A DNA stretch of 64,000 nucleotides from Coriobacteriia bacterium (GTDB lineage Bacteria; Actinomycetota; Coriobacteriia; Anaerosomatales; PALSA-660): assembly GCA_025361885.1 (NCBI GenBank), contig JANYJF010000009.1:3696-67695 (forward strand). The letters run 5' to 3'. The notes below the pieces were generated by a model that saw nothing but the letters and a program-made list of their open reading frames with translations, searched no databases and was not told the origin of the DNA. Position 1 is the first letter of the stretch; the number at the start of each line of letters is the position of its first letter. Position numbers and translations under genes: made by a program. Shown piece by piece: positions 5,568 to 64,000 of the stretch.

Positions 5568-6332
5568 ATGGCCCTGTTCCTGGACCTGCTGCTGGGACAT
5601 ATGCTCGGGGACTTCCTGCTGCAGCCCGGCAAGCTGGTCGCTGCGAAGCGCGACGGCTGGCCGGGAGTGTTCCTGCACTCCGGCGTGGTTGGTGTCGTGA
5701 CCGCTCTCGTCACTTTGGGCACACTGCGCCGCGACTGGTTCGCCATCGTCGCGGTCACGCTCGCGCACATGCTGATAGAGAAGATCACCATCCTCGCATA
5801 CGAGAAGACCCCCACCCGGGGACTGTTCACACTCTTGTTCGACCAGTCGCTCCATGTCCTGTCGATCAGCGCGATCGTACTGGCCGGAGGCGGGCTTGAA
5901 CCCCGCGCGACCGCGATGCTGCTCGGGTTCCCTGTCGCGACACGGGTCCTCGCGATCATCGTCGGCCTGGTCACGGTGATGCTGGCCGGCTCGATCCTGG
6001 CGTTCGAAGCCGGCAACGCACTGGAGCCGGGCGGCTCGAAGGGTGCGCTGCTGACGCTGGACCTGGCAAGGACCGTCGGGATGGTCGAACGGGGCGGAGC
6101 CGTGGCGCTGGCGCTCGTCGCCGGACCCGCCCTCGGTTCCATGGTGTTCCTGCCACGAGCGATCTGGGCCATGACGCTCACTCCCAAGGAGCGCGCACGA
6201 CAACTCGCACAGACAGCGGCGGGGCTCCTGCTCTGCGCGTTCGTCCTCTTCGGGATCCACGCGGTTACGACGCTGGCTGACGCGGGCAGCCCGCCGGTCT
6301 GGGCGTGGCCGTCATGGAATGCCGGCTCTTGA
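5568..6332 (+). CDS. DUF3307-family integral membrane protein
   Basis: 254 aa, multi-TM. N-terminal LLGHMLGDFLLQP matches the H-x3-DF-x2-Q signature I associate with DUF3307. GGGAG RBS 7 nt upstream. Confidence 0.75.
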   Translation: MALFLDLLLGHMLGDFLLQPGKLVAAKRDGWPGVFLHSGVVGVVTALVTLGTLRRDWFAIVAVTLAHMLIEKITILAYEKTPTRGLFTLLFDQSLHVLSISAIVLAGGGLEPRATAMLLGFPVATRVLAIIVGLVTVMLAGSILAFEAGNALEPGGSKGALLTLDLARTVGMVERGGAVALALVAGPALGSMVFLPRAIWAMTLTPKERARQLAQTAAGLLLCAFVLFGIHAVTTLADAGSPPVWAWPSWNAGS

Positions 6333-6378
6333 GCGCCGTGGAGCCGCACGGCACCGATCCGATCGAGGTGAGGGCACG

Positions 6379-29191: not shown

Positions 29192-29437
29192 TCAGACCTC
29201 GTCGATCGGGAACACGCAGCCGATGCTGACGCGGTTGACCGCGATGTAGGACGGGGTGTACAGCGGCGTATCGCTACCTATCCGGAACACCCGGGCATCC
29301 GTCACGGCGAAGTAGTCCTTGGCTTTCGAGTTCAACGAGTCGGTGAGTCGGCTACCGACGAGGACATGCATGTCCCCCTCGATCCTGTACTCGTTCGTGA
29401 CGATGACGACGCGGATCCGGTCCTTGTTCGTGTACAC
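29192..29437 (-). CDS. Small hypothetical protein (81 aa)
   Basis: GTG start with GGGAGG 6 nt upstream. Beta-rich sequence VYTNKDRIRVVIVTNEYRIEGDMHVLVGSRLTDSLN.... No function assignable. Confidence 0.6.
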   Translation of the reverse strand: MYTNKDRIRVVIVTNEYRIEGDMHVLVGSRLTDSLNSKAKDYFAVTDARVFRIGSDTPLYTPSYIAVNRVSIGCVFPIDEV

Positions 29438-29508: not shown

Positions 29509-30195
29509 CTACCGCACGCCTGCAATGCTTTGAAGGATGACCCGCAGCCAGGCGGCGAGTCCTATCTCGGTGGCCGACAATGCCAAGGCGATGAGCGCGG
29601 GAGCCCACGCGTCCCTCGCCCGATCGAAGGAGCGGTCGAATCGCAGCGGCAGCAGCGCGATGACCATGTTGACGCCCACGAAGGTCGCCACGATCGCCGC
29701 CACGACCACCAGGGGATACCACACTCCGAGCAGCGGCATCACCCACCACACGAACGCGAAGGCCACAGGCAGCGGAAGCACCCACAGCAAGAGGTCGAAG
29801 GTGCCAGACATCGAACGCTCCGGACTCGACCGCCGCCACAGCGACCCCGTCACCATGGGATACACGACGACCGGAAGCGCCCACCCCGCCAGCAGACCGG
29901 TGATCAGGCGCAGCGAGTTATCGGTGACGCGCCATCCCGCGTAACTCGTGACGCCGTCCCAAGCCATCGCGGCCACGAACAGCCCGGCCAGTGCCAGCGC
30001 GGGCCACGCGGGAAGCCCGGAGCGCCGCCGGCCCCGGTCGATCCATGCGATTACGGCGAAGGAGATCACGAAGCCGATGTATATCCCGGTGTCTCGCGCG
30101 CACACCGGCACCTGGTGCGTCCCTCCGAAGAAGGAGCGGGCGGGCAGCTGATGGCACAGGCCGAAACCGAACCAGTGCAGGAGCGTGTCGATCAC
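29509..30195 (-). CDS. DUF2085-family membrane protein
   Basis: GTG start 30193-30195 (GAGGAGG RBS) gives 228 aa: VIDTLLHWFGFGLCHQLPARSFFGGTHQVPVCARDTGIYIGF..., the CHQ-x-P-x-RSF...CARxTG pattern I associate with DUF2085. The longer track ORF would run through tRNA-Pro. Confidence 0.78.
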   Translation of the reverse strand: MIDTLLHWFGFGLCHQLPARSFFGGTHQVPVCARDTGIYIGFVISFAVIAWIDRGRRRSGLPAWPALALAGLFVAAMAWDGVTSYAGWRVTDNSLRLITGLLAGWALPVVVYPMVTGSLWRRSSPERSMSGTFDLLLWVLPLPVAFAFVWWVMPLLGVWYPLVVVAAIVATFVGVNMVIALLPLRFDRSFDRARDAWAPALIALALSATEIGLAAWLRVILQSIAGVR

Positions 30196-30269
30196 GCGAG
30201 CCTCCTCGCCGGCTGAAACGAAGTGGCAGGCCCGGGATGGTGCCCCGGACCTGCCACGTGCTCGTCGGT

Positions 30270-30346
30270 TGGTCGGGATGGCGGGATTCGAACCCACGAC
30301 CTCTGCGTCCCGAACGCAGCGCTCTACCAAGCTGAGCCACATCCCG
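30270..30346 (-). tRNA. tRNA-Pro (anticodon CGG)
   Basis: CGGGATGTGGCTCAGCTTGGTAGAGCGCTGCGTTCGGGACGCAGAGGTCGTGGGTTCGAATCCCGCCATCCCGACCA. Anticodon loop TT-CGG-GA. Confidence 0.94.
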
Positions 30347-30422: not shown

Positions 30423-30470
30423 ACGGACGCGAAAGGACCCGGGCGCTTGTGGCGCCCGGGTCCCGTCCGT
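30423..30470 (-). terminator. Two-tier GC-rich hairpin downstream of the 24-heme cytochrome gene
   Basis: Inner perfect 12-bp repeat ggacccgggcgc / gcgcccgggtcc (loop ttgtg) flanked by an outer 7-bp repeat acggacg / cgtccgt. Starts 22 nt after the stop codon. Confidence 0.6.
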
Positions 30471-30491: not shown

Positions 30492-32507
30492 TTAGCGGAT
30501 CAACCTCACGTGGCAGTATGAGCAGTAGGTCTCCTTGTGGCACTTGAAGCAGTCCTGCGGATTCCCTGCCTTGACCACGTCCGGATGCTGCTTGAGCCAC
30601 GGCACAGTCGGCGAGGAGCCGGCGTGATGGCAAGCGTTGCAGAACGTGGTGGCGTGGCAGTTCACACAGGTTGCGCGATCGAGCTTGGCTGGCGTCGCCT
30701 TGAAGTCGGCGGCGTGCTGGCCACCAGGCAGGGTCTTGGCGCTGAACCCTGTCGGGTGCGGCATTGCGACCTTGTGGCAGCTCTGGCAGAAGGCGTTGGT
30801 GTTCGCATCGCCATCACCATGGCAGTAGGCACAACTGTCCTTCTGCTTGTTGTAGGAAGCCCAGTGGATCGCGCCGTTCGCGTCGGTCCGGTGCGTCCAG
30901 TTAGCAGCCTTGTGCGAGTCGGGCAGCACCTTGTTCTTCTGATGGCACGTGATGCAGAAGGCCTTGTCCTGATGGCACTTCTGGAAACATCCTGCGGTAC
31001 CGGCGGCGGCGACGGACGCCCCGTGCTGCTTGACCCACGGGACCGACGCCGTGGAACCGACGTGATGGCAGTTGCTGCACAACTCCTTGAAGGTGTGGCA
31101 GTTCGCGCACAGCTTCGGATTCGCGCTTCCGGTCTTGGCGTGGAACTGCTTGAACTCGGCCGGGTGCGGCATCGCGAGCTGATGGCAACCCACGCAGAAC
31201 GGGTTCTTGGTCGCGTCACCAGGTCCGTGGCAGATCTCACACGTCTTGATGTTCTTGGCAGCGGCCGTGTGCGCCGCAGGCGTCTTGTCCTTGGCCTGGC
31301 TGTCCGCGCCGGACGGCGAGTGCAGCCAGATCGCGGCCTTGTGCGACGTCGGGAACGGCTTCAGCTTCGTGTGGCAATCGGAGCAGAACTGCGTCGTGTG
31401 GCACTGCTTGAGACAAGAATCCATTCCATTCTTGTCGACGAGCGTCGCATGACCGTTCAGCCACGGTGTCGCAGCGTCGAACTTGCCGCCCACCTGCGTG
31501 CCGTGGTGGCAGTTGTCACAGAAGTGCGTAGCGGCGTTGTCGCCGTGGCACATGACGCACTTGGCGAGCGAGGTCTTGGAGACCGCGGGGTGGGACTTCG
31601 TCTTGAAGTCCGCGCTGTGCGGCATCGGCATGCCGTGGCACGCCTCGCAGAAAGCCTTCTCGTCATGACACATGCCGCAGTATGCGACCTGCTTGAACGG
31701 CGTGATCTTGACTCCGGCCTCGCGGTCCGAGGAGGCAGCCTTCTGGGTGCCTCCGGCCGCCTTCGATGCTTCTTCGGCCGCCTTGACCTCTTCTTCGTAG
31801 AAGGTCTTGGCGAGCGCGCCATGGCCCTTCGGAAAGAAGTTGGCCACAGCGTGGTTCGACGGCTTGAGCGGGAAGTCGGGTGTGTGGCACGCGGAGCAGA
31901 TGCCAGGGGCCTGACCACCCTTCGCCAAGCTGTGACAACGGAAGCAGCCCTGCATCTTCATATAGTCGGGGTGCTTCTGCTGCGTGAGCTTGAGGGTCAG
32001 GTTCTGCTCGTTGTGGCCGACCCGGTTGTGGCAGGTCGTGCAGGTGACGTTCTTGTCCGCGTGGACCTTATGGTCGATCACGATGCCCGCTGAGGGCGTG
32101 ACCTTGCGGTTCGCGGAATGGCATTGCGTGCATTGCGAGGAGGGGAACTCCCCGCTGTTGAGCGAGAGCTCGGATTCGGCGTTGAGGGGCAACGTGAAGT
32201 TGCCGCTCACCGTCAGGTACAGCTCTCCGAGTGCCTTCGCCTTCTTGAGGATGAACGTCACCGTGTCCGCGTTGACGGGTTCGTGACATGCCATGCAGGA
32301 CACCTCGGAGTGCGAGGAGTTCTCATACGCGGCGATCGAGTCGTCCTGCACCTTGTGACACACCTGGGCACAGAACCACCGTGTCGATGTCGCCCCCAAC
32401 ATGACGATGACGAACGCGGCCAACGCCAGGACAATGACACCCGTCCAGATGACGTATCGCGGTCGGCGGACCGGGTCTTTGAACCCGGCCAGGGAGATCT
32501 TGGCCAT
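30492..32507 (-). CDS. Membrane-anchored multiheme c-type cytochrome (about 24 heme-binding motifs; NapC/NirT-like N-terminus)
   Basis: ATG 32505-32507 with AAGGAG 8 nt upstream. One N-terminal TM helix (YVIWTGVIVLALAAFVIVMLGA). I count 21 CxxCH plus 3 Cx3CH (CAQVCH, CLKQCH, CFQKCH). The C-terminal two thirds are three tandem hexaheme repeats. Confidence 0.9.
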   Translation of the reverse strand: MAKISLAGFKDPVRRPRYVIWTGVIVLALAAFVIVMLGATSTRWFCAQVCHKVQDDSIAAYENSSHSEVSCMACHEPVNADTVTFILKKAKALGELYLTVSGNFTLPLNAESELSLNSGEFPSSQCTQCHSANRKVTPSAGIVIDHKVHADKNVTCTTCHNRVGHNEQNLTLKLTQQKHPDYMKMQGCFRCHSLAKGGQAPGICSACHTPDFPLKPSNHAVANFFPKGHGALAKTFYEEEVKAAEEASKAAGGTQKAASSDREAGVKITPFKQVAYCGMCHDEKAFCEACHGMPMPHSADFKTKSHPAVSKTSLAKCVMCHGDNAATHFCDNCHHGTQVGGKFDAATPWLNGHATLVDKNGMDSCLKQCHTTQFCSDCHTKLKPFPTSHKAAIWLHSPSGADSQAKDKTPAAHTAAAKNIKTCEICHGPGDATKNPFCVGCHQLAMPHPAEFKQFHAKTGSANPKLCANCHTFKELCSNCHHVGSTASVPWVKQHGASVAAAGTAGCFQKCHQDKAFCITCHQKNKVLPDSHKAANWTHRTDANGAIHWASYNKQKDSCAYCHGDGDANTNAFCQSCHKVAMPHPTGFSAKTLPGGQHAADFKATPAKLDRATCVNCHATTFCNACHHAGSSPTVPWLKQHPDVVKAGNPQDCFKCHKETYCSYCHVRLIR

Positions 32508-32749
32508 ACACACCTCTCCTTGCTCACATCGGGGCCCTCATGCACGCGACAAGAACAGTCGAAATCCCCTCTCGACCGATCGCGTCAACGATATCGGAAC
32601 GCATCGGGTACCGCAAACGGCCCGTCCGCACTTCCGGGGTGTTTCTGGAGGGATCTCTCGCGAGTCCTCCCTGTTGCGTCATTCGACGGGCGTGGGCCGA
32701 ATCCTGCATGCCACGGCGGCCGAGGCACACACTGCGGCCAGGCAGCCGA

Positions 32750-33216: not shown

Positions 33217-34374
33217 CTATCCCGTGATGAGGGCGTCGGCCACGCTGTTGAGTTCGCCGACGGACGAGGATATCTGACGGGACGTCGCGGCGGCCTGCTG
33301 CGAGACCATCGCCACTTCGCGCATCGAGACGACCACCTGGTCGGAGGCCGAACGCTGCTGTTGGGTGGCGATCGAGATCTGCTTGGCCGCATCCGTGGTC
33401 TGCTCGACTTCGGCGACGATCCTGTCGAGGGCGTCGGCGGTGCGACGGGCCAGGTCCTTGCCCTCGCCGACCTTCTTGGCGGAGCGCTCGGTGGCCATGA
33501 CCAGCGCGGAGGTCGATGCCTGTATCTCGCGCACGACCCGTCCGATCTCCTGGGTCGAGTCCGTCACCGAGTCCGCCAGCTTGCGGATCTCCTCGGCCAC
33601 CACAGCGAAGCCCTTGCCGGCCTCGCCCGCCCGCGCGGCCTCGATGGCGGCGTTGAGCGCCAGGATCTTCGTCTGCTCGGCTATCTCGTCGATGATCGTC
33701 AGCACGCGGCCGATCTCCTGGCTGCGCTCGCCCAGGGCGAGGATCCTGTCCGATGACTGCTGGGTGGTGATGCGGATCTCCTCGATGCCGGCAGCGGTGT
33801 CGCTCACGGCGGTCATGCCTTCCTCGGCTGACGCGAGGGTGCGCTCGGCGACCCGGACCACCGACTCGGAGTTCTCCGCTATCTGCTTGGACGTCTGTGC
33901 CAGCTCCTCGAGGGTCGCCGAGGTCTCGGTCACCGCTGCGGCCTGCTCCGCGGCACCCGACACCTGCTGCTCCGTGGCCGCGAGGATGTCGGATGCCAGT
34001 CCGCGCAGCCGGGAGTTCACACTGCGCACCTGGGAGAGGAGTGAGGTGACGTTCGCGAAGACGTGGTCGAGCTCGACCTGCGACTCGTCGATGCCGCGCG
34101 TGTCTCGAACGGCGACTCCCATGGTGCCTCCGGCTGACTTCAGGACCTCGTGCAGCACCCGCTCGGCGGTCTGCCTCGCGATGAACCAGCAGCCGGCGCC
34201 CAGTCCCACGCCCGCGATGACGCACATCGCCCAGAAGACGATGGTCTGCACGGGCCCGTCGGTGGTGACGAACAGGCTGGCGAGCAGCGGGAACGCGACT
34301 CCGACCCCGACTCCCATCGCGAGCATCGTGTACAGCAGCCTCCGACCGGTGATGTCGCTGGTTCTGGAGCTCAC
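33217..34374 (-). CDS. Methyl-accepting chemotaxis protein without an extracytoplasmic sensor domain
   Basis: 385 aa. Two closely spaced TM helices, then an MCP signalling domain with the highly conserved hairpin [30 protein letters not shown]. Confidence 0.92.
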
Positions 34375-44577: not shown

Positions 44578-45495
44578 TCAGGATACCACAGGCCGGCGGG
44601 CCGCATCCAACCCGAGGCACAGTCCATCAAGCAAACCCACCGCCAAGTGCTGCAGTTCATGCTCTCCGGAAACATCCGCGTCACCGAGCACGACGGCCAC
44701 ATCGAGAGGCACGCAGGCCGCTGCGTTCAACGCCGTGACCATGCGGGTCGCCAAGGTCGGATCCGGGCCGTCGCAGCACCGCACCACCGGCATGGCGGTG
44801 GTCGTCCGCGGTGCCTCACGCCCGATCCGGACGATCGCGGCAACACCAGCCGGGGCAGTCTCAGCCACGGTCACCAGGGCGCCGTCCCAGCTGGCGGCCG
44901 CAAGGTTCGCGACCCGCTCCGCAAGACGCCGGCCGTCCTCGTCGGACGGCACGATCGCAACCGGGGAAGACGCGAGGACCCCGGCGCTGCGGGCCGGCAT
45001 GGCGCGCAGGCCCGACGGGGTGGTCGGCGTCTTGTCCGCCCACACGTGCCGCAGGCTTCCGATCGCTCGCACCGTGTCCATCCCGACGATCCCGTCGTCG
45101 GGCAGACCGGTGTTGGTCTGGAAGTCACTGACCGCGCGCTCGGTGAAGGCTCCGAAGATGCCATCATGCTCGCCGCACGCGAACCCGAGCGCGTTCAGCG
45201 CTCCTTGGAGCGTCCGCACATCGGCTCCGTGGAAGTACGGTCGCCGCAGGTATAGGAGCCTGTCGCCCAGGCTGAAGGTGGCATCGACGAGGGCCGACCA
45301 TGTGCGTGGACCGACCTCACCGTCCTCGGCCAGGTCAAGCTCACGCTGGAACGCGCGAACGGCCGAGAGGGTCGCGCCTAGGAACACGCCATCGACTCCC
45401 GTACCCCCCAGCACGATGCCGAGGGTGAGGAGTCTGCGTTGGATGTCTTCGACTGCTGGGCCGCGGTCACCCTCGCGGATTGGTCTGGATTCCAC
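44578..45495 (-). CDS. Protein with two PG_binding_1-type peptidoglycan-binding repeats and an unassigned C-terminal domain
   Basis: 305 aa. GDRGPAVEDIQRRLLTLG...DGVFLGATLSAVRAFQ and GADVRTLQGALNALGF...DGIFGAFTERAVSDFQ repeats. No obvious signal peptide. Confidence 0.7.
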   Translation of the reverse strand: MESRPIREGDRGPAVEDIQRRLLTLGIVLGGTGVDGVFLGATLSAVRAFQRELDLAEDGEVGPRTWSALVDATFSLGDRLLYLRRPYFHGADVRTLQGALNALGFACGEHDGIFGAFTERAVSDFQTNTGLPDDGIVGMDTVRAIGSLRHVWADKTPTTPSGLRAMPARSAGVLASSPVAIVPSDEDGRRLAERVANLAAASWDGALVTVAETAPAGVAAIVRIGREAPRTTTAMPVVRCCDGPDPTLATRMVTALNAAACVPLDVAVVLGDADVSGEHELQHLAVGLLDGLCLGLDAARRPVVS

Positions 45496-45555
45496 GCCGC
45501 TCCTGAGATGCCGGCGACGATGCCCGAGGATGCCCGGGCCGACTCCGACGTTGGC

Positions 45556-45891
45556 CTAGTGCGTACCGTACCGCTCGCGGAACTTCGCGACATTCGCTTG
45601 CACGAACTCGTTGTGAGTCTCCGCGCGGCGCAGGAAGCGCTCGATCTCCATATCGACGATCGTGTCCCGGTGGTACCGGTAGCGGTCCGCGTCGGCGGAG
45701 AGCACGTAGAAGTCGGCAAGCACACATAGTATCACGCCGGCAGTCGTCTCATTGAGACCTGCTCGGCGCGCGACGTCAGTCACCGAGAGCGGCTCGTCGG
45801 GGTGGTGACGGAAGAGACGAAGGATGTCCTTGGCGGCCGTCTCGCTCATCCGGTCGTCCGGGATCTTCTCAAGGGCTCGCTTGAGGCTCAT
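45556..45891 (-). CDS. Small hypothetical protein, possible winged-helix fold
   Basis: Internal ATG 45889-45891. 111 aa: MSLKRALEKIPDD...LSVTDVARRAGLNETTAGVIL. The HTH-like segment is the only clue. Confidence 0.5.
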   Translation of the reverse strand: MSLKRALEKIPDDRMSETAAKDILRLFRHHPDEPLSVTDVARRAGLNETTAGVILCVLADFYVLSADADRYRYHRDTIVDMEIERFLRRAETHNEFVQANVAKFRERYGTH

Positions 45892-46064
45892 CGACGGCAC
45901 TTCCCTTCGCCCGTCGTGGTCAGCTCGTGCTCGCAAGCCGATCCTCGGGTCTCGCTCACATGGTACCCCGCACACTCATGTGAGTCACAGCAATCTTCAC
46001 GCCGATTAAGGTATGTGAACTCGTCTGAACGCTTCTCCCATGACACGCGACGGGCCCTGCGGCA

Positions 46065-47555
46065 TCACTCAGCCGAGACGACACGGTTCTTTCCGCTGCG
46101 CTTCGAAACGTACATGGCGTGGTCCGCCGTCTCGATGAGCTTGCCCTGGGTGGTCGCGTTGCGCGGATACGACGCCACGCCGACGGAGATGGTCTTGCGG
46201 ACCGACGGGATGCCATCGCCTCCGATGAACGACAGCGCCTCGACGCTGCGGCGGATGCGCTCGGCGACGGCGCGCGCCCCCTCGAGATCCGTCTCGGGAA
46301 GCACCACGACGAACTCCTCACCGCCATAGCGCGCGGCCACGTCCATCTCCCGGAGGTTCTCCCGGATGGCGTCGCTCACCATCTGCAGGACCTTATCGCC
46401 GCGAGGATGCCCGAAGGTGTCGTTGAACACCTTGAAGTCGTCGATGTCGAGCATGATCAATGACAGCGTGTGCGCGAATCGCGACGCGCGGCCGAGCTCC
46501 TCTTCGAGGCGCTGCTGGAAATACCCGTGGTTGTACAGTTCGGTGAGCCTGTCCGTCACCGAAAGACGCTCGAGTTCCTCATGGAGCAGCGCGTTCTGGA
46601 GCGCCAGGGAGCTTTGGTTGGCGATGACCTGGAGGCGCTCAATCTCCGCCGGCGTCATCTCCCGGTATGTGGAGGACGCGACGACCAGCACTCCGACGAT
46701 CAGGTCGCCGGTGCGGAGCGGGATCGCAGCGTGCGAGCGGAGATCGGAAGGCTCGCACACCCAGCGCGCCGACCGGCCGCCATCGGGGATGTCGGTCTCC
46801 TGCACCGTCCCTTCGGTGAAGGCGCGGCCGAGCAGCGTTTCCGACACGGGGACAGCGGCTGCGAAGAAGTGCTCGGGGCGCCCCTGGCTCGCTCTAAGCC
46901 GCAAGAGCCACTTCTCCTGGTCGAGCAGGTACACGCAGCTGATCTCGGCGCCGAGGATCCCGTTGGCACCGTCGACGATCAGGGACGTGACGTCGTCGAC
47001 CGACGAGAACGACGTGAGGGCCTTGAAGAACTCATGGGTGAAGAAGATCTCGGCGAGTCGGCCCTCGAGCTCACCGTTCGCCCGCTCGAGAGCCTCCTTG
47101 CTGGACTGGAGCTTGCGCTCATGGCTGCGGATCTTGTCGTACGCCACCTGCAGTTCGACGAACAGCTTCTCCTGCTCCTCGCCGCGCTTCTTGGCGACGA
47201 GGAGGTCCCAGATCATCTCCGACCCGCGGCTCCCTATGACCTCGACACCGGACGGGCAATCCTCTTCCAGCAGGACGCGCGTGGCTGCGTCCTCGGACAC
47301 GTCGACGATCAGGTCGAGGTCCCGCACCTGGTACAGCTCGCTGATGTCGGATGTCGTGAAGATGCCGAGCTCCTCGGCCAGACGAACGCCAGGTGACGAC
47401 TGGTTGTTGTCGGCGAGCGCTACGACGGACAGGTTATCGACCTCGTTGAGAAGGCGGAGGATGGAAGCCGAGCGGAGGTTGCCCCCGACGATGGCTATCG
47501 TCAGGCGCCCGGGGTGCGTGCGCGCCATGGTCGCCTCTGCACGTGCGTCGGTCAT
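46065..47555 (-). CDS. Diguanylate cyclase: Rossmann-like N-domain, coiled coil, GAF, GGDEF
   Basis: 496 aa. C-terminal GGDEF domain (DRLTELYNHGYF...LIMLDIDDFKVFNDTFGHPRGD...RYGGEEFVVVLPE) with an RxxD-like I-site region, and a central GAF. N-terminal IAIVGGNLRSASILRLL...VVALAD is Rossmann-like. Confidence 0.9.
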   Translation of the reverse strand: MTDARAEATMARTHPGRLTIAIVGGNLRSASILRLLNEVDNLSVVALADNNQSSPGVRLAEELGIFTTSDISELYQVRDLDLIVDVSEDAATRVLLEEDCPSGVEVIGSRGSEMIWDLLVAKKRGEEQEKLFVELQVAYDKIRSHERKLQSSKEALERANGELEGRLAEIFFTHEFFKALTSFSSVDDVTSLIVDGANGILGAEISCVYLLDQEKWLLRLRASQGRPEHFFAAAVPVSETLLGRAFTEGTVQETDIPDGGRSARWVCEPSDLRSHAAIPLRTGDLIVGVLVVASSTYREMTPAEIERLQVIANQSSLALQNALLHEELERLSVTDRLTELYNHGYFQQRLEEELGRASRFAHTLSLIMLDIDDFKVFNDTFGHPRGDKVLQMVSDAIRENLREMDVAARYGGEEFVVVLPETDLEGARAVAERIRRSVEALSFIGGDGIPSVRKTISVGVASYPRNATTQGKLIETADHAMYVSKRSGKNRVVSAE

Positions 47556-47588
47556 TTGGGCTCTTCCGTAGGTCGGCTTGGTCGTCGC

Positions 47589-48116
47589 TCAGATGTCCCG
47601 GATGCCGTACTGATAGCTGCGCACGACAAGGATACCTGTGTCGAGATGCAGTTCGATAGTGCGTGCGTGGTCTCCACCGGTATCTTCGGCACGCAGCAAG
47701 ACGCCCGCGAGATGCAGCTGGCGGTGGACCTCGTCGATGTTGCGGCTGCCGATGCCCGCGAGCATCGAGTCCCCCTTGAACATGGCAGCCCCTCCTGCGA
47801 TCTTGGCCACCAGGCGCCGGTGCGAACTGCCTTCGGCCTCGAGCAGCGCGATGAGGGCCGGGACCGCGTGGGTGGCGAAGCGGTCCATCTTGCCCACCAT
47901 CCGCGTGTCTTCCGAGGACGGCAGCATGACGTGCGCCATGCCCCCGGCCTGCCGGGACGGGTCCCATAGCGCGATGCCGATGCAGGAGCCCAGCGCCTGG
48001 GTCGTGAGGATCTCCGGGTAGGTCGCCGTGGCAAGCTCGCCCACACCGACCGTGACATGCCGGTCGACGTTGTCGAGATAGCTTGTGTCGCTGTGCATCA
48101 CAGGAAGTTGCCTCAC
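47589..48116 (-). CDS. cheD: Chemoreceptor glutamine deamidase CheD
   Basis: 175 aa. TQALGSCIGIALWD (active-site Cys) and GMAHVMLP. ATGA overlap with cheC. Confidence 0.92.
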   Translation of the reverse strand: MRQLPVMHSDTSYLDNVDRHVTVGVGELATATYPEILTTQALGSCIGIALWDPSRQAGGMAHVMLPSSEDTRMVGKMDRFATHAVPALIALLEAEGSSHRRLVAKIAGGAAMFKGDSMLAGIGSRNIDEVHRQLHLAGVLLRAEDTGGDHARTIELHLDTGILVVRSYQYGIRDI

Positions 48117-48724
48117 ACGACCCCGAGTCTGCCAAGAAGCACATCCAGACTGTCCGGGTCCGGGAGGAAGAACATGTACGCGTCCACGGTGGTCTCTTCG
48201 CTGAAGAAGCGCGTGCGCAGCAGAAGCGCGTTCTCCGCCCGCATACCGATCTCGGCGGTCACGACCTCCAGTATCGCCCCCGCCATGTCCAGCGCGAACG
48301 AGGGCTTCGCGGGCAGGATGTTGAGGTCCGCGAGCCTCGCGATCGAGGCAACGTACGAAGCCGCGAGTATCGACGCGACGTGCGTGATCATCGCCTCCTC
48401 CTCGGTGCCGAACGACTTGGCGGTGCCGACCGGCCTGTTGCGCATGAGGTCCACGAGCGCCAGCGAGGAGTCGCGAGGAGCCACGAACAGCAGCCCTCCA
48501 CCCAGGTCGCCGAGCATCCTGTCGTACACGGCGCCGACCAGCGTCTCCGGTCCGCCGAACACATCAGGAACGCTGCCTATCGGCAGCAGCTCGAGCTGCG
48601 GCACTTCGAGATCTATGCGATGGTCCACGAGTTGGGAGAGCGCCGTCGCCGCGTGCCCGGCGCCTATGCTCCCCACCTCTCGCAAGGCATCCAGTTGCAT
48701 GGCCGTGAGGTCCTCGATGCGCAT
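48113..48724 (-). CDS. cheC: CheY-P phosphatase CheC
   Basis: 203 aa. LDALREVGSIGAGHAATALS and a second internal CheC-like repeat. 1-nt TGATG overlap with cheA. Confidence 0.9.
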   Translation of the reverse strand: MRIEDLTAMQLDALREVGSIGAGHAATALSQLVDHRIDLEVPQLELLPIGSVPDVFGGPETLVGAVYDRMLGDLGGGLLFVAPRDSSLALVDLMRNRPVGTAKSFGTEEEAMITHVASILAASYVASIARLADLNILPAKPSFALDMAGAILEVVTAEIGMRAENALLLRTRFFSEETTVDAYMFFLPDPDSLDVLLGRLGVV

Positions 48725-50700
48725 CAGCGTTCCCCTCCCATGCTGAACAGCATGCGCGGATCGAGGATCAGCGCCACGGAGCCGTCTCCGAGGACCGTAG
48801 CGCCCCCCAGACCGCGCACCCCGCGGAACATGCGTGACAGCGGCTTGATCACGATCTCCTGTCTTCCGGTGAGCGACTCGACGGACAGCGCCCGCGCGAC
48901 ATCGCCCGTCTCAACCAACACCACGTGCTCCCGCGGTCCCGGTAGGCGCGTGGCGTCGTCCGAGAATCCCAGCAGCACGTCGAGCCGGTGGAGAGAGACG
49001 ATACGCCCGTCGCGCAGCGTGACCACAGGCATGCCGTCCACGCTCCCGGCGTCGATCTCGTCGGGCGCGAAGACCTCGGTGACCGCGCCGAGCGGCAGCG
49101 CGAACGTCTGCCCGCTCGACCTCACGAGCAGCGCTTGGATGATCGCCAGCGTGAGAGGCAGGCTCAGCTCGAACTCGGTCCCGCCCGTCGGCCGCTGCCT
49201 GATGTGGAGCGAACCGCCGAGGTACTCGATCTTGCCGCGGACGACGTCAAGGCCGACGCCACGACCGGACACCTTCGTCGCGACGTCAGCCGTGGAGAAG
49301 CCGGGTGTGCACGTGAGCATCAGCACGTCATCGGCCGAGTAGCCGTCGCGGTCCGCCGGGTCGACCATCCCGCGCTCGACGGCCTTGGCCCAGATGCGGT
49401 CGGGATCCATGCCCCCGCCGTCGTCGGAGACGCTGATGAGCACTTGGTCGCGCTCGCGCGCGGCGACCAGCCGCACACACCCGCGCCCTGGCTTGTCGGC
49501 GGCGACACGCTCACTCGCGCTCTCGATGCCGTGGTCGACCGCGTTGCGCAGCAGGTGCACGAGGGGGTCGCCGATCTCGTCCAGGACCGTCCTGTCCAGC
49601 TCGATGTCCAGGCCGTCCATCTCGAAGGCTATGTCCTTGCCCAGGTCGCGCGCCAGGTCTCGCACCATGCGCGGGAAGCGGTTGAAGATGTTGCCGACGG
49701 GCACCATGCGTGTCTGCATGACCTCGTGCTGGAGGTCCGACGAGATTGCGTGAAGTCTCTCGACGGCCTCGGTGAACCGGAGGTCGTCCGCCTCGCCGGC
49801 GAGGGTCTCGAGCCTGGAGCGCAGGATCACGAGCTCACCAACGAGGTCGACGAGCGTATCGAGGTGCCCGATGGAGATGCGCACCGTCTGGGTCTCGGAG
49901 AGCTTCGGGACCTCGGTGCGGGCTCGCGCGTGGAGCTCCCCGGGAACGCTCGTCTCCACTGGCGCCGCGTCGCCGCCGGCGACCTCCATCTCGTCGACCC
50001 GCGCCGCGTGCACCTCGGTCACGGCCAGGATCGCGCGCTCGACATCACCGACGGCCTGCCTGGTGCGGACGACCACCTCGAACGTGTGGTCGAACAGCTC
50101 ATCCTCTATCTCGCGTGCTGACGGCGTCGTGTCGACGACGTGGCCCATGTGGCTGAGACGCTTCACCACCATGTACGCCCGTACGGACTTGAGCACGCAG
50201 GTATCCTCGAGGTCGACGGAGGCGTGGATGACCCTCTCCCCGGGCTCGAGCGCCATGTCGCCGTGGGCCGGAGCTGATGGCGCACCGGCAGCCGCATCGG
50301 CCGTGGCGTCAGGGACGCTGCTTCGGAACTGCGTCCGTACTTCGAGCTCGGAGGTGATGCTCGACGTGTCGATCGCCGCTCTCCCGTTCGACTCGTCATC
50401 GATGAGCGCCTTCGCGACGTCCACCGCGCGAAGCACGATATCCACGAGCGCCCCGTCCACGCTCTGCTCGCGCTTGCGTACGGTGTCCATGAGCGACTCC
50501 ATCTTGTGGGTCAGCTCGGACGTGCGCTCGTAGCCCATCGCGGCGGCCATGCCCTTGAGGCTGTGCGCGCCGCGGAAGACCACTTCGACCGGCTCGAGGT
50601 CATGCGGGTCGGACTCGAGCACGAGCATGCCGTCGATTATCGCCTGGATGTACTCGGCGCTCTCGGATAGGAACACGTCGCGATAGACCTGCATGTCCAT
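48724..50700 (-). CDS. cheA: Chemotaxis histidine kinase CheA
   Basis: The start MDMQVYRDVFLSESAEYIQ matches the Bacillus CheA N-terminus. HPt domain (FRGAHSLKGMAAAMG), HATPase (DDGGGMD, GRGVGLDVV) and a C-terminal CheW-like domain. The track ORF start at 50820 overlaps cheB and is rejected. Confidence 0.95.
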   Translation of the reverse strand: MDMQVYRDVFLSESAEYIQAIIDGMLVLESDPHDLEPVEVVFRGAHSLKGMAAAMGYERTSELTHKMESLMDTVRKREQSVDGALVDIVLRAVDVAKALIDDESNGRAAIDTSSITSELEVRTQFRSSVPDATADAAAGAPSAPAHGDMALEPGERVIHASVDLEDTCVLKSVRAYMVVKRLSHMGHVVDTTPSAREIEDELFDHTFEVVVRTRQAVGDVERAILAVTEVHAARVDEMEVAGGDAAPVETSVPGELHARARTEVPKLSETQTVRISIGHLDTLVDLVGELVILRSRLETLAGEADDLRFTEAVERLHAISSDLQHEVMQTRMVPVGNIFNRFPRMVRDLARDLGKDIAFEMDGLDIELDRTVLDEIGDPLVHLLRNAVDHGIESASERVAADKPGRGCVRLVAARERDQVLISVSDDGGGMDPDRIWAKAVERGMVDPADRDGYSADDVLMLTCTPGFSTADVATKVSGRGVGLDVVRGKIEYLGGSLHIRQRPTGGTEFELSLPLTLAIIQALLVRSSGQTFALPLGAVTEVFAPDEIDAGSVDGMPVVTLRDGRIVSLHRLDVLLGFSDDATRLPGPREHVVLVETGDVARALSVESLTGRQEIVIKPLSRMFRGVRGLGGATVLGDGSVALILDPRMLFSMGGER

Positions 50701-50714
50701 GTCGTCCGACACCG

Positions 50715-51815
50715 TCACGCTTCCCCTCTGACATGACGCCGCACTTCCGCGGCGATCCGATCCAGCGGCTCCACCAGCACGGCGGCCCCCATTTTGACCG
50801 CCGCGCCAGGCATGCCCCACACGATGGAGGTGTGCTCGTCCTGCGCGATCGTGTGTCCGCCAGCGTTGCGCAGGGCCATGAGCCCTTTGGCGCCGTCCGT
50901 ACCCATTCCTGTAAGGACGACACCCGTGCCGCGGTCGCCATACTCGTTCGCAAGCGAGACGAGCAGCGGGTCGGCGGCGGGCCTCACTCCGTGCATCGGC
51001 GGACTGTCGAGGAGTTCCAGCACCGTGGTCCGGCCAGGCCTTCCGGAGACGACCATATGGCTTCCGTACGGCGCCAGGTACCCGTGTCCGGGCTGGACGC
51101 GCATGCCCATCGCCGCCTCCACCACCGGCATCCCGGAGATTCGCGCGAGACGTTTCGCGAAGGAGGCCGTGAACCCCGCGGGCAGGTGCTGTACCACCAG
51201 ATACGCGACCGGCAGGTCCTGCGGCAGGCCGGAGAACACCTGCTCCAGGGCCGGAGGCCCTCCCGTCGAGGCGGCCAGCGCGACGATGTGCGCCAGAGAG
51301 TCCGTCGCGGCGCGCGGCGGTCTCACATGTTCCCGGGTCCCGGACCCGGATGCCCCGGCGACCGACGACTCCACCCGCCCATCCGACCCGTCGTGCCCGA
51401 TGGTCCTCTTGGCGGGATCGATCCTATAGGCGGTCTTGATCTTCTTGACCAGCTGGTCGGACAACTCGGAGAGCGACGTGGCGAAACCGCCGCGCGGTTT
51501 GGAGATGAAGTCGACGGCCCCGCGAGTGAGCGCCTGGTAGGTGACTTCGGGATCGTCCTGAGAGGAGAGCATGAGCACGCGAGCCTTGGAATTCCGCACG
51601 ATGTGCGGAAGGGCCTCGAGTCCGGTGAGCTCGGGCATCTCGATGTCGAGAGTGATGACGTCGGGTTGCAGCCTGCGGCTCTGCTCGATCGCTTCCACGC
51701 CATTGCGGGCCCATCCGACGACCTCGATGCGAGGATCGAGGCCCAAGGCCCGAACGAGCATCTGGCGCACGAGGGCCGAGTCGTCGACCACGAGGACGCG
51801 GATCGGCTCTCGCAT
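50715..51815 (-). CDS. cheB: Protein-glutamate methylesterase/glutaminase CheB
   Basis: MREPIRVLVVDDSALVRQML REC domain plus methylesterase domain (LAASTGGPPAL, QHLPAGFTASFA, IAQDEHTSIVWGMPGAA). An alternative GTG at 51854 would overlap cheY. Confidence 0.93.
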   Translation of the reverse strand: MREPIRVLVVDDSALVRQMLVRALGLDPRIEVVGWARNGVEAIEQSRRLQPDVITLDIEMPELTGLEALPHIVRNSKARVLMLSSQDDPEVTYQALTRGAVDFISKPRGGFATSLSELSDQLVKKIKTAYRIDPAKRTIGHDGSDGRVESSVAGASGSGTREHVRPPRAATDSLAHIVALAASTGGPPALEQVFSGLPQDLPVAYLVVQHLPAGFTASFAKRLARISGMPVVEAAMGMRVQPGHGYLAPYGSHMVVSGRPGRTTVLELLDSPPMHGVRPAADPLLVSLANEYGDRGTGVVLTGMGTDGAKGLMALRNAGGHTIAQDEHTSIVWGMPGAAVKMGAAVLVEPLDRIAAEVRRHVRGEA

Positions 51816-51829
51816 CGCGGGAATCCGGT

Positions 51830-52201
51830 CTAGTGCGGCGTCGTCTGCAGGCACTTCTTGACCGTCTCCAGCACCTTCGTCGGCTGGAACGGCTTGACCA
51901 AGAAGTCCATGGCCCCGGCCTCCAGCGCCTCGACTATCATCTTCTGTTGTCCCATGGCGCTGACCATCAGGACTCGGGCTTGAGGGTCCCCGTCGCGGAT
52001 GAGTCGCAACGCATCGAGACCGTTCATCTCGGGCATCGTGATATCCAGCGTGACGAGATCGGGGTGGATCTCCTCGTACTTGTCCACGGCATCCCGGCCA
52101 TTGACGGCCTCGTGGATGACGTAGCCCTCCTTGGCCAGGATGTCGCGGATCATCATGCGCATGAATGCGGCATCATCGACCACGAGGACAGTACTAGACA
52201 T
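51830..52201 (-). CDS. cheY: Chemotaxis response regulator CheY
   Basis: MSSTVLVVDDAAFMRMMIRDIL...LVTLDITMPEMNGLDAL...VSAMGQ...GAMDFLVKPF. GGGGAGG lies 9 nt upstream of ATG 52201. Confidence 0.95.
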   Translation of the reverse strand: MSSTVLVVDDAAFMRMMIRDILAKEGYVIHEAVNGRDAVDKYEEIHPDLVTLDITMPEMNGLDALRLIRDGDPQARVLMVSAMGQQKMIVEALEAGAMDFLVKPFQPTKVLETVKKCLQTTPH

Positions 52202-52682
52202 GCGCCTCATCCTCCCCGGCCTCGGTAGTGCCAGTCGCTGCGTAGTCAGCGCGGGGAAGCGCCTTGTCGAGTTCGAGCAGGATCACGAGTCTTCCCTCCA
52301 TCTGGACCACGCCACGGAACGCCTCGGCGGTCTCGGCCACCAGCGCCGCCTCGGGCGCGGGTCGCACGTCATCGTCGAGGATCGTCGCCACCTCATGCGC
52401 GGCATCGACGACCAGCCCTACGGGTCCGTTCGACGACTCCGCGATGACGATGCGGCTGGCGACAGTGATCACGGGGTCGCTGCCGAAGAGCTTGCGGGAC
52501 AGCGAGACGATGGGCACTACGCGCCCGCGCAGGTTGATGACGCCTTCGACCATATCGGGCGCACGCGGGACGGGCGTCGCGATCTCGTGGCGGATGATGC
52601 TCGACACTTGCGCGATCGGCAGGCCGAACTCCTCGGCGCCGACCCGGAATATGACGTACTGGCTGCTCAGAGGTCCACTCAT
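52194..52682 (-). CDS. cheW: Chemotaxis coupling protein CheW
   Basis: 162 aa. YVIFRVGAEEFGLPIAQV..I.........P.AP..V.GVINLRGRVVPIV.L. Confidence 0.93.
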   Translation of the reverse strand: MSGPLSSQYVIFRVGAEEFGLPIAQVSSIIRHEIATPVPRAPDMVEGVINLRGRVVPIVSLSRKLFGSDPVITVASRIVIAESSNGPVGLVVDAAHEVATILDDDVRPAPEAALVAETAEAFRGVVQMEGRLVILLELDKALPRADYAATGTTEAGEDEAHV

Positions 52683-52691
52683 GCGGCAGCC

Positions 52692-54014
52692 TCAGTCCTC
52701 TGAGATGCGGAAGATGTGGACCGAGTCCTCGAGGCGGTGAGCCATGTCCGCCAGGTCCTGCGCCGAAGACGAGATCTCTTGCATGCAGGCGGTCTGCTCC
52801 TCGGCGGCCGCGGCGGTCTGCTGAGCCGAGGCCGCGTTCTGCTCCACCACGGCCGCGATGTCATGCATCGCGCGGTCCACGGAGGCGGTGCGCTCGCGCT
52901 GCTCGGCCATGGCCTCGGCAATGCGCTCTGCCAGCGCCGCTGTGCGGTTGACCACATCGTTGATCTGGGAGAGCGACGCCGAACTGCGGCCCACGACCTC
53001 CGTACCCGCAGCGACCTCGCGCATGCCGATCTGCATGTACTTGACCGCCTTGCCCGTCTCCTCCTGGACCTCTTTGATGAGGTCGCCGATCTGCTCGGCA
53101 GCCTTGCCCGAGCCCTCGGCCAACTTGCGGACCTCCTCGGCCACGACAGAGAAACCGCGACCCGACTCGCCCGCGCGCGCGGCCTCGATGGCCGCGTTGA
53201 GTGACAGCAGGTTCGTCTGGTCCGCTATGGATGTGATGACGTCGACGATCTTGCCGATCTCGACCGAACGCGTCCCGAGCACTTCCACCGAGCCGGCGAG
53301 GGTCTCGATCGCCGATTGCACCTCGGCCATCTTCGCGATGGCTTCATCGGTGGCCTGCTGTCCATGTGCGGTATACCGGGCGGCCTCCTCGCTCGTGCGG
53401 GACGCCTCCTCGGCCTGCTCTGCGGCCCGGCCGACCGTCTCGACGATGGCCTCCATCGCCGACGACGTCTCCTCGACCTTGCGCGACTGCAGCTCGGCGC
53501 CGTGCGCTATCTGCTGCACCGAGGACGATATCTCCATGGTCGAGGAGTTGATCTCCTCGGATGAGGCGGAGAGCTCCGTGGCGGCCGCGGACACTGACTC
53601 CGCGGAGCGGCGCACGTTGGCGGCGATGTCTGACAGGGACGCGATCAGGCCGTTGCACTCATTTGCCAGCAGGCCGATCTCGTCGTTCGTATCGATGTTG
53701 GCGCGCACGGTCAGGTCGCCCTGCCCCGCCTCGACCATCACATCGCCCAGATCGCGCAGAGGGCGCAGGATCTTGTTCTTGAACGCCCTGTTCCACAGGA
53801 GCTGTCCCGGTATCGCCGCCAGCAGCATCGCTACGCCGCCCCAGAATGCGATGGGGAACATCTTCGCGGGTGTGAGAGCGAGGTCAACGTACGCGTAGAT
53901 GGCGGTCACGAGCAGGCCGATCGTCACGGCCGGCCCGATGGTTATCCATGTCCAAAGGGTGAAGCGATACGACAGGCCGCCCCGTATCGAGCTGTCACGG
54001 CGTTCCTCGGTCAA
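52692..54014 (-). CDS. Methyl-accepting chemotaxis protein (2 TM, HAMP, no large sensor domain)
   Basis: 440 aa. TTG start after GGAGGAGGAGGG. Two TM helices separated by a short loop, a HAMP region, and [31 protein letters not shown]. Confidence 0.92.
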
Positions 54015-54110
54015 GAAGACCCTCCTCCTCCGTTGACGGATGCACGGCCGCCCCTGCCGCGTCGGAACAGATTCTACTCCATGGCGAGCAGGGAGAGTGT
54101 GCCATCGTGC

Positions 54111-54953
54111 TCAGGACTTCGGCGGCCGTTTCCGGTAGATGCGCTCGCGCCCGCTGACCGCTTCGAAGCGCTCCGAGAGCGCCGGTGACATCTTCTCGCT
54201 GCGACCGAGGACCAGATAGCCGTCGCGGGACAGCGCCTTCCAGAACAGCTCGAGGACGCGCTCCTGCTGCTCGCGCGTGAAGTAGATGAAGACGTTGCGA
54301 CAGAACACGACGTCCACGACGTTGACGGGCTCGTCGCGGAATAGGTCGAGCACGCGGAACTTGACGTGCGACGTGACTTCGCGCTTGATGGTGAACGTGG
54401 CGGGCCCCTCGTCCACAAAATGCCTGTCGGCCTCCGGGATGTGCGAGAGCTTCGCGATGTCATAGGTGGCGAGCTTGGCGGTCTCGAGAACCGACGGGTC
54501 GATATCGGTGGCGAGGATGGTGAGTACGAACCGGCTCGCGTTGTCGCCGATCGCGTCGAGGAACGACATCGCCAGCGAATACGCCTCCTCGCCTGTCGCG
54601 CAGCCAGCGGACCACACCCGGATCATCCTGTGACGCCCGCGCAGCTTGGTGTCCACGATCCCTGGGACGATCTGCGAACGGAACAGTTCGTACACCGGCG
54701 TGTCCCGGAAGAAGTCGGTGACGTTGATGGTCAGAGTGTCGAGCAGGCGGGCGTATTCGTCAGGATCGGAGTCCAGGGCGCGTGCGTACTGGCGGTACGT
54801 ATGCAGGTTGAGGGAACGGAGCCGCGCGGCGATGCGCCGTTCCACGTAAGGCCGGCGGTACTGGGTCAGGTCAAGCCCCCGGGCTTGGACGACCTTGTCG
54901 ATGAGCCGCTCGAGGTCGCCGCGATAGACCTGATCGAGTTCCACCTTGTCCAT
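54111..54953 (-). CDS. cheR: Chemotaxis protein methyltransferase CheR
   Basis: ATG 54951-54953 (GGAGG RBS). Motifs: Y.R.Y.ERRI.AR, LTINVTDFFRD and SAM-binding IRVWSAGCATGEEAYSLAM. Confidence 0.93.
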   Translation of the reverse strand: MDKVELDQVYRGDLERLIDKVVQARGLDLTQYRRPYVERRIAARLRSLNLHTYRQYARALDSDPDEYARLLDTLTINVTDFFRDTPVYELFRSQIVPGIVDTKLRGRHRMIRVWSAGCATGEEAYSLAMSFLDAIGDNASRFVLTILATDIDPSVLETAKLATYDIAKLSHIPEADRHFVDEGPATFTIKREVTSHVKFRVLDLFRDEPVNVVDVVFCRNVFIYFTREQQERVLELFWKALSRDGYLVLGRSEKMSPALSERFEAVSGRERIYRKRPPKS

Positions 54954-55067
54954 CCGACCTCCGTCACCTGCGGTCGTGCCGCCCGCGCGCATCTACTATA
55001 GCGCCGAACGTCGAAGGACAGCGCGCGCACGAGTCCAGACTCGCGCCCGACGTGGACGGACCCGCGC

Positions 55068-58214: not shown

Positions 58215-58220
58215 ACCTTG

Positions 58221-59447: not shown

Positions 59448-59454
59448 CGGGACG

Positions 59455-61808: not shown

Positions 61809-61860
61809 GTCCTCCCGCGCGTCGATATGGCCCAGCCAGCAGTGTGCCACACGAGATACG

Positions 61861-61888
61861 GGGAAGGGCCGGTTGCCCGGCCCTTCCC
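61861..61888 (-). terminator. Perfect 12-bp hairpin directly after the hexaheme cytochrome gene (terminator/attenuator)
   Basis: gggaagggccgg / ccggcccttccc with a 4-nt loop. Located in the only sizeable intergenic gap (134 nt) of the locus, about 55 nt after the cytochrome stop. Confidence 0.55.
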
Positions 61889-61942
61889 TCCGTGCTCGTG
61901 GTCCGTCGAGCGGCTCTAGGCCGAAGCCGGACCGCCGTGCGC

Positions 61943-63133: not shown

Positions 63134-63135
63134 AG

Positions 63136-63990: not shown

Positions 63991-64000
63991 GTCTGCCACC

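Follow-up and report, generated by a model that had tools for sequence, protein, structure and literature searches.

The membrane-anchored NapC/NirT modules of CymA from Shewanella (4 hemes) and of TorC/DorC (5 hemes in TorC) feed extracytoplasmic acceptors, and TorC provides a precedent for a heme domain fused to the C-terminal side of such a module. NrfH from Desulfovibrio vulgaris (PDB 2J7A/2VR0) is a tetraheme menaquinol dehydrogenase with a single N-terminal anchor, a quinol-site lysine (K82; K91 in CymA), an acidic residue at D89, a CxxCH-x-M motif at heme 1, and NrfA as its partner. The subject of this report is a gene for a c-type cytochrome with 24 heme motifs. It is located on the minus strand at positions 30492-32507 of a 64,000-nucleotide stretch of contig JANYJF010000009.1 from a Coriobacteriia bacterium; the whole stretch is referred to here as the window. 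The encoded protein resembles NrfH in its single anchor, in the quinol-site lysine, and in having an acidic residue at the D89 position. It differs from NrfH by 20 additional hemes and by the absence of the CxxCH-x-M motif and of the NrfA partner.

Membrane-anchored NapC-like modules fused to many hemes are already known from Gram-positive iron reducers, and transcriptome work has already drawn attention to an ortholog of the window cytochrome. The "NapC/NirT family cytochrome c" of Carboxydothermus (WP_028051368.1, ABB14926.1) is 27% identical to the window protein over ∼580 residues (E = 1e-41), and proteins of this annotation from several Carboxydothermus species cluster with the 20-heme protein P0176. 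The Carboxydothermus protein corresponds to the 20-heme "putative Q-oxidase" Ga0395992_02_135863_137242 of the Gram-positive iron reducer Carboxydothermus ferrireducens, in which it is constitutively produced (PMC7829351). A transmembrane anchor, an NrfH-like module, and hexaheme-type repeats are common to the two proteins. The Carboxydothermus protein, however, carries its 20 hemes in ∼455-495 residues, has a canonical FCxxCH-x-M motif at heme 1, and differs in the number and phase of its repeats. In the Coriobacteriaceae bacterium EMTCatB1, cytochrome 1d0898 is surrounded by the same neighbors as the window gene (PBP, DnaJ, MCP, tRNA-Pro, and DUF2085), and its architecture is not analyzed in the source report (PMC7943316).

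Tandem arrays of small multiheme modules are also found in HmcA (16 hemes in c3-like domains) and GSU1996 (12 hemes, c7-type, ∼12 nm). In the window protein, which shows a weak similarity to class III or c7 cytochromes, the unit contains six hemes and is joined to an NrfH-like membrane anchor. In Thermincola potens and Thermincola ferriacetica, a relay has been proposed that carries electrons from the membrane through a periplasm-like space to CwcA in the wall and OcwA at the surface. That relay uses several small proteins with 6-10 hemes each, whereas the window gene encodes a single membrane-rooted polypeptide with 24 hemes. The literature searched contained no description of a 24-heme three-repeat architecture, of the hexaheme module, of a 12/18/24-heme accretion series, or of a clade-specific Cx3CH motif at heme 1. 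With a probability of roughly 0.55, the window protein is a stand-alone membrane-rooted multiheme electron conduit, in which an NrfH-type membrane site is combined with three hexaheme modules. It probably moves electrons between the cell membrane and the exterior of a Gram-positive subsurface bacterium.

Results

Heme Motifs and Repeat Structure

The reading frame encodes 671 residues from the ATG at 32507 to the TAA stop codon at 30492-30494. The longest form of the frame reaches a GTG at 32513; homologs instead begin with MAKISL, which matches the ATG at 32507, and this start agrees with the conserved MAKISLAGFKDP start among homologs. Recounting of the heme motifs gave 21 CxxCH and 3 Cx3CH (residues 46, 365, and 507) behind one N-terminal transmembrane helix, the same figures as in the initial annotation, and all of the repeat strings quoted there as examples are present. 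The 24 motifs together take up all 48 cysteines of the protein, which also contains 50 histidines. The GC content at third codon positions (GC3) in this frame is 0.85, and all 24 motifs are kept in 113 of the 120 best homologs. The reading frame and its 24-motif pattern are therefore not due to chance.

Hemes 7-24 are arranged in three hexaheme repeats (Table 1), as had been proposed. Pairwise BLASTP comparison of the three repeats gave E values of 1.8e-28, 6.6e-24, and 3.5e-32, with identities of 34-41%. Each repeat unit consists of a diheme part and a tetraheme part. The diheme motif described previously is present, although it is one residue longer than had been written and reads CH-x-x-[AP]-M-P-H. 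Re-phasing of the repeats at P-x-S-H-x-A brings H219, H389, and H532 into register. The number of invariant histidines outside the motifs is exactly 23, with five in the N-terminal module (N-module) and six in each re-phased repeat. This number would suffice for 23 bis-His hemes and would leave one heme open, which, to judge from NrfH and CymA, would be heme 1.

The A/E/K-rich insertion that precedes the first heme of repeat 1 is 36-115 amino acids long across the family, compared with 10 amino acids at the equivalent site in repeats 2 and 3. It is more plausibly an insertion loop than a tether.

When the repeats were searched individually, none passed any Pfam gathering threshold. The whole protein scores 26.4 bits with PF02085 (class III cytochrome c3; cutoff 22.9); for repeat 1 by itself the score is 16.5, and repeats 2 and 3 are not matched. 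The score with PF22113 (MtrC/MtrF domain II/IV) is 49.8 bits when summed over four stretches, the best of which falls within the N-module (residues 48-195); the cutoff is 30, and repeat 3 by itself reaches 20.2. The similarity to PF22113 looks like a generic multiheme likeness. The AlphaFold2 model of repeats 2 and 3 (residues 386-671) is rated confident, with a predicted local distance difference test score (pLDDT) of 85.6 and a predicted template modeling score (pTM) of 0.64. A Foldseek search of the PDB with this model returned no match, and the whole-protein model returned one spurious match only (E = 9). These negative results are weak because Foldseek missed even NrfH. As judged from its sequence, the repeat module is an undescribed building block, for which there is neither a Pfam model nor a solved structure.

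Membrane-Proximal Module

The N-module was identified by Pfam as belonging to the NapC/NirT/NrfH superfamily. The score with PF03264 (NapC/NirT) is 50.9 bits for the whole protein and 52.0 bits for the N-module alone, relative to a gathering cutoff of 24.1, and residues 24-167 span model positions 17-171 of 174. Residues 143-209 score 43 bits with PF14522 (cytochrome c7). When a profile constructed from 52 family sequences was compared with all PDB sequences, NrfH (2j7a_C) was the sole match (E = 0.004). The alignment spans residues 25-163 and four hemes; K82 of NrfH pairs with K89, and D89 pairs with E95. K89 is invariant in 52 of the 52 aligned sequences, and E95 is found in 46 of them. The likeness to NapC, NirT, and NrfH in the initial annotation stands on these three results (the PF03264 score, the NrfH match, and the invariant lysine), but it does not extend to heme 1, where the canonical signature is missing. 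A single-sequence phmmer search against the PDB gave only matches of zinc-ribbon L32 proteins to a Cys/His-rich stretch, which were judged to be spurious.

Heme 1 reads W-F-C-x-x-x-C-H-K-V-Q-D-D, and CxxxCH is found in all 52 aligned members. The Cx3CH-KVQDD signature is limited to the close clade of 12-, 18-, and 24-heme proteins; more distant carriers of the module keep F-C-x-x-C-H-E-M.

The N-terminal tail is predicted to be cytoplasmic, and the hemes are predicted to be outside the membrane, because more lysine and arginine residues precede the helix than follow it (Table 1). A cleaved signal peptide was considered and rejected, given the invariant N-tail and the position of heme 1 only 6 residues beyond the helix. 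Tat export via the RRPR sequence of the N-tail was likewise rejected, since the fit to the Tat consensus is poor and c-type cytochromes are matured after Sec export. The N-tail (residues 1-21; 32445-32507) is nearly invariant across the family (M1, G8, P12, R15, P16, R17, and W21), and such conservation is unusual for a plain membrane anchor.

Distribution and Heme-Number Series

With an E-value limit of 1e-5, 609 homologs were found. Identity is 84% for the best of them and 45-60% over the full length for most; the full-length colinear homologs have query coverages of 99-100% and identities of 44-84%. Relatives are encoded in 303 species-representative genomes, including a metagenome-assembled genome (MAG) of the Anaerosomatales and EMTCatB1. 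Almost all homologs are from the Coriobacteriia, a Gram-positive class; where named, they are from Coriobacteriia or Actinomycetota MAGs, mostly uncultured. Their annotations are generic ("NapC/NirT family cytochrome c" or "cytochrome c3 family protein").

A search with a profile built from the three repeats of the window protein matched 976 cluster representatives of many architectures at E ≤ 0.001. Among the best 150 of these 976, the same N-module is followed by one (12 hemes), two (18 hemes), or three (24 hemes) repeats. Hidden Markov models specific for each repeat showed that the 12-heme proteins consist of the N-module and an R1-type repeat, and that the 24-heme proteins consist of the N-module followed by R1, R2, and R3. 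In the 18-heme proteins, the N-module and R1 are followed by a repeat that is equidistant from R2 and R3. This pattern therefore points to growth at the distal, C-terminal end.

A 24-heme ortholog (locus L013) and a 12-heme paralog (locus L085, 2498170-2511306; reading frame at ∼5990-7149) occur together on the complete MAG chromosome OY968780.1. The paralog is a protein of 382 amino acids with the N-module and an R1-type repeat. Its neighbors are a substrate-binding protein, Ig-like repeat proteins, and a CbiMQO-type transporter, and are not redox enzymes.

Transcription of an Ortholog

EMTCatB1 originates from a thermophilic electromethanogenic (methane-producing) biocathode (PMC7943316). 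The cytochrome at the orthologous EMTCatB1 locus (L010) carries 21 + 3 motifs and shares 52% identity with the window protein along the full length. Gene 1d0898 was identified as the ortholog because the annotated gene order, 1d0895 mrcB, 1d0896 dnaJ, 1d0897 MCP, 1d0898 cytochrome, and 1d0899 membrane protein (PMC7943316), matches that of locus L010. The assignment of 1d0898 as the ortholog of the window cytochrome is thus strongly indicated.

Expression, on which the initial annotation depended, is documented for this ortholog: 1d0898 is transcribed and is induced on a current-consuming cathode (PMC7943316). The multiheme cytochrome genes 1d0898 and 1c0642 are both raised under closed circuit, and direct electron uptake was proposed by the authors (PMC7943316). 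The values for 1d0898 are 2347, 137, and 130 transcripts per million (TPM) under closed circuit, BrES, and open circuit, respectively, the latter two being controls, a change of ∼17-fold (PMC7943316). The flanking genes 1d0897 and 1d0899 have TPM values of 143 and 92, and the level of 1d0898 is 16-25 times these values (PMC7943316). Gene 1c0642 has a different neighborhood, with FHA and kinase genes. The cathode data point to uptake of electrons, not to their export, and weaken the earlier proposal that the protein carries electrons outward. In the DUF2085/DUF6812 region, genes 1d0899-1d0901 are several-fold up under closed circuit, with TPM values of 92/16/45, 1249/151/318, and 1127/188/348, respectively; this rise could be due to co-regulation or to a general growth effect.

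The annotation of the EMTCatB1 genome includes the menaquinone genes MqnA, a UbiD-UbiA-UbiX cluster, and UbiE/MenG, as well as, for cytochrome c maturation, CcdA and a CcmC/ResC-like protein. The description of the Anaerosomatales, the order in which one MAG carries an ortholog, gives a Gram-positive wall, 17-18 multiheme cytochromes per genome, and a G+C content of 66.6-67.7% (PMC9686372). The GC content of the window is ∼67%. The named isolates Anaerosoma and Parvivirga were not returned for this gene by the second homolog search or by the cluster look-ups.

Locus and Transcription Unit

The intergenic region upstream of the cytochrome gene is 242 nt long (32508-32749), rather than the 236 nt given previously. 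The sequence AGGAGAG is found upstream of the start in 39 of 70 orthologs. No Rex-type box and no common motif besides the ribosome-binding site were detected in the upstream regions of these 70 orthologs, and a sigma-70 scan gave no promoter match. The terminator scan also returned a small minus-strand hairpin, GTCGAGAGGGGATTTCGAC, at 32556-32578, ∼50 nt 5′ of the start codon. It is not obviously conserved in orthologs and could be a leader or operator element.

Downstream, the strong terminator of the initial annotation is retained as a very strong GC hairpin, but its U tract is weak (Table 1). A strong hairpin after the stop codon is present in 62 of 65 orthologous loci, without conservation of its sequence. 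The gene looks monocistronic, as was initially suggested, because it has its own ribosome-binding site, the conserved hairpin, and, in EMTCatB1, a transcript level unlike those of the flanking genes.

The conserved gene order is PBP, DnaJ or DUF362, MCP, RidA, cytochrome, tRNA-Pro(CGG), DUF2085, and DUF6812, followed by PNP, M50 protease, Rex, TatA, GreA, LysS, and ClpB. The tRNA-Pro gene follows the cytochrome gene in all eight orthologous loci tested, and the cytochrome/tRNA-Pro/DUF2085 arrangement is therefore ancient in the lineage. In the window, the conserved downstream neighbors DUF2085 (a predicted membrane protein; 29509-30120) and DUF6812 (29192-29437) are on the minus strand. The MCP gene at 33217-34374 is upstream of the cytochrome gene and is kept there in orthologous loci. 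The coordinates of the features are collected in Table 1.

Table 1. Features of the 24-heme cytochrome gene, its product, and the adjoining region in the window
Feature	Position	Strand	Details
CDS, 24-heme c-type cytochrome	30492..32507	-	671 aa; apoprotein ∼72.4 kDa; ∼87.2 kDa with 24 hemes (computed)
Ribosome-binding site AGGAGAGG	32513..32520	-	5 nt 5′ of ATG
N-module, residues 1-215: transmembrane anchor and six hemes	31863..32507	-	NrfH/NapC-like tetraheme part 24-167; c7-like part 143-209
Sole N-terminal transmembrane anchor, residues ∼19-40 (predicted)	32388..32453	-	hydrophobic helix; 5 K/R before, 2 after
Heme-1 motif C46-A-Q-V-C50-H51 (Cx3CH)	32355..32372	-	6 residues past the transmembrane helix; followed by invariant K-V-Q-D-D
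Hexaheme repeat 1, residues 216-385, hemes 7-12	31353..31862	-	re-phased; starts P-S-N-H219
Variable A/E/K-rich insertion, residues 230-276	31680..31820	-	between H229 and first heme of repeat 1 (C277); pLDDT 40-58
Hexaheme repeat 2, residues 386-528, hemes 13-18	30924..31352	-	homologous repeat
Hexaheme repeat 3, residues 529-671, hemes 19-24	30495..30923	-	protein ends 5 residues past the last CxxCH
GC-rich terminator hairpin	30423..30470	-	12-bp perfect core, then UUUCGCG; -47.7 kcal/mol, z = -5.3; weak U tract
tRNA-Pro (CGG)	30270..30346	-	directly downstream; conserved neighbor; own terminator-like hairpin 30223-30257

A second cytochrome locus is present on the minus strand at 55068-63999. 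It encodes a 1048-residue protein with 14 heme motifs and FG-GAP repeats, an NHL-repeat protein, a 414-residue protein without a Pfam match, a large polytopic membrane protein (∼60309-61850; no Pfam match), a 396-residue protein with 6 heme motifs, and a 4Fe-4S dicluster protein whose reading frame continues past the end of the window. The 24-heme cytochrome was initially thought to complement this locus. No link between the two loci was found, which weakens that interpretation. A chemotaxis/signaling neighborhood on the minus strand at 44578-54992 includes CheR (54111-54992), an MCP with HAMP (52692-54014), a GAF-GGDEF protein (46065-47555), and peptidoglycan-binding and NlpC/P60 proteins. 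An open reading frame on the plus strand at 6319-7938 encodes 539 amino acids with a coding-type GC3 of 0.82 and has no Pfam match at E ≤ 1e-5.

Discussion

The proposed membrane-rooted conduit would operate as follows. The single uncleaved N-terminal helix, with its N-terminus inside, would anchor the protein in the cytoplasmic membrane and present 24 c-type hemes on the outside. Near the invariant K89 and the likewise invariant acidic patch D55/D56, the membrane-proximal heme 1 would trade electrons with a lipid-soluble carrier, for which menaquinol is the likeliest candidate. Electrons would pass through the five further hemes of the N-module and then through the three tandem hexaheme modules with bis-His ligation to heme 24 at the tip. 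Heme 24 would hand electrons to, or take them from, cell-wall or surface cytochromes, minerals, or electrodes. Such a chain would be reversible, and the sole expression data, for ortholog 1d0898, come from a cathode, where electrons are taken up. Heme attachment, quinol oxidation, spanning of the wall, and the identity of the partners are the parts of this mechanism that we infer.

In solved multiheme wires the spacing is ∼0.8-1 nm per heme: MtrA has 10 hemes in ∼8 nm, GSU1996 has 12 hemes in ∼12 nm, and OmcS has 6 hemes per 4.7 nm. By comparison with these proteins, 24 hemes in line would reach roughly 20 nm, which is the scale of a Gram-positive wall.

Several observations weigh against this interpretation. 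Chief among them is the report that respiratory quinones were "not detected" in two cultured Anaerosomatales (PMC9686372). Heme 1 also departs from every canonical NrfH/NapC signature, being Cx3CH and lacking the methionine of CH-x-M, the position of which is occupied by valine (CH-K-V) in 51 of 52 sequences. It is thus precisely in this clade that the quinol site has diverged. The scores with the NCBIfam models are all far below their cutoffs: 44.4 bits relative to 134.2 for TIGR03153 (NrfH equivalog), 22.3 relative to 310.6 for TIGR02161 (NapC/NirT), and 25.6 relative to 478.2 for TIGR02162 (TorC), the last with an E value of 6.7e-6. By these cutoffs and by its heme-1 signature, the protein would not be classed as NrfH, NapC, or TorC. 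No redox or respiratory partner gene is found beside the cytochrome gene in any locus examined. In EMTCatB1, many growth-related genes are likewise raised under closed circuit (PMC7943316). The whole-protein model has a pLDDT of 74.7 and a pTM of only 0.39, and the variable insertion between the N-module and repeat 1 is of low confidence. The continuity and length of the heme chain are therefore properties that we infer only.

The alternative that survives best retains the same architecture and assigns uptake as the physiological role. Electrons from extracellular donors, such as cathodes, reduced minerals, or partner cells, would be delivered to the membrane pool, in the manner proposed for cM552, ImoA-type NapC/NirT proteins, or CymA in reverse. 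NapC/NirT proteins are reversible. Expression data for an ortholog are limited to the methane-producing biocathode and consist of the ∼17-fold increase with current that was attributed by the authors to direct uptake (PMC7943316). The sequence itself sets no direction, however, and Parvivirga, a cultured relative, is an obligate Fe(III) reducer, which transfers electrons outward, from an order with similar cytochrome sets (PMC9686372). An uptake role is possible, though on balance it is rather unlikely to be the physiological one.

A more far-reaching form of the proposal, which must be considered doubtful as a whole, is that of a length-adjustable membrane-rooted wire. Distal addition of the undescribed hexaheme fold (12 → 18 → 24) would set the reach through the Gram-positive wall. 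The rebuilt heme 1, a Cx3CH motif without the methionine, would signal a non-canonical electron donor in the membrane of a lineage for which quinone analysis was negative.

The heme-1 site also bears on the donor in a different way. The N-module may have moved away from quinol, and its divergent heme-1 site may reflect a switch to a membrane protein partner (the cytochrome b of a hydrogenase or formate dehydrogenase, or a Nuo-like complex) or to a non-quinone lipid carrier. The Cx3CH-KVQDD sequence replaces the canonical CxxCH-x-M in this clade only, strict conservation of the cytoplasmic N-tail is a hint of contact with a protein, and the cultured Anaerosomatales have membrane complexes even though quinones were not detected (PMC9686372). 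That result may reflect a limit of the method, and the searches for the ortholog did not return the quinone-negative cultured strains. Moreover, the quinol-site lysine K89 is invariant, and the ortholog-bearing EMTCatB1 encodes futalosine-pathway menaquinone genes. A donor other than quinol is thus unlikely.

The protein could also serve near the membrane, as an electron hub or capacitor that stores ≤24 electrons and supplies several nearby reductases, soluble or wall-associated, like CymA or the Hmc/Tmc-type cytochromes, rather than as a wire across the wall. A conserved core gene that is unclustered with any single terminal reductase would suit such a hub, as would the coexistence of a 12-heme paralog and a 24-heme ortholog in one genome and the poorly predicted overall shape. 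The strictly C-terminal accretion of whole modules and the end of the chain at the last heme nevertheless look more like an extension of length, which is suggestive only, and a hub is improbable. A catalytic multiheme enzyme that acts on nitrite, hydroxylamine, sulfite, or a similar substrate at an active-site heme is very improbable: one heme does lack a conserved distal histidine, but this one open site is most simply assigned to heme 1 on the quinol side, the 671-residue protein has no CxxCK or other catalytic signature, no catalytic family was matched in Pfam or NCBIfam searches, and no nrfA-like gene is found beside the cytochrome here or in the orthologous loci examined, where the neighbors are RidA, MCP, tRNA-Pro, and DUF2085.

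A membrane-rooted 24-heme conduit would have consequences for how electrons cross the wall of Gram-positive and uncultured subsurface bacteria, a process that has only been sketched from a few Firmicutes with relays of small cytochromes. The conserved quinol-type site and the report of quinones "not detected" in cultured relatives present a clash that can be tested directly. Since the hexaheme module has neither a Pfam model nor a solved structure, its structure would add a new multiheme building block, and the 12/18/24-heme series is a natural experiment on the length of a heme chain. The family is a core syntenic gene across the widespread non-gut Coriobacteriia (OPB41/Anaerosomatales and relatives), and an ortholog is one of the few cytochrome genes whose expression rises at a methane-producing biocathode. 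For these organisms, this cytochrome family would be a one-protein alternative to multi-cytochrome relays.

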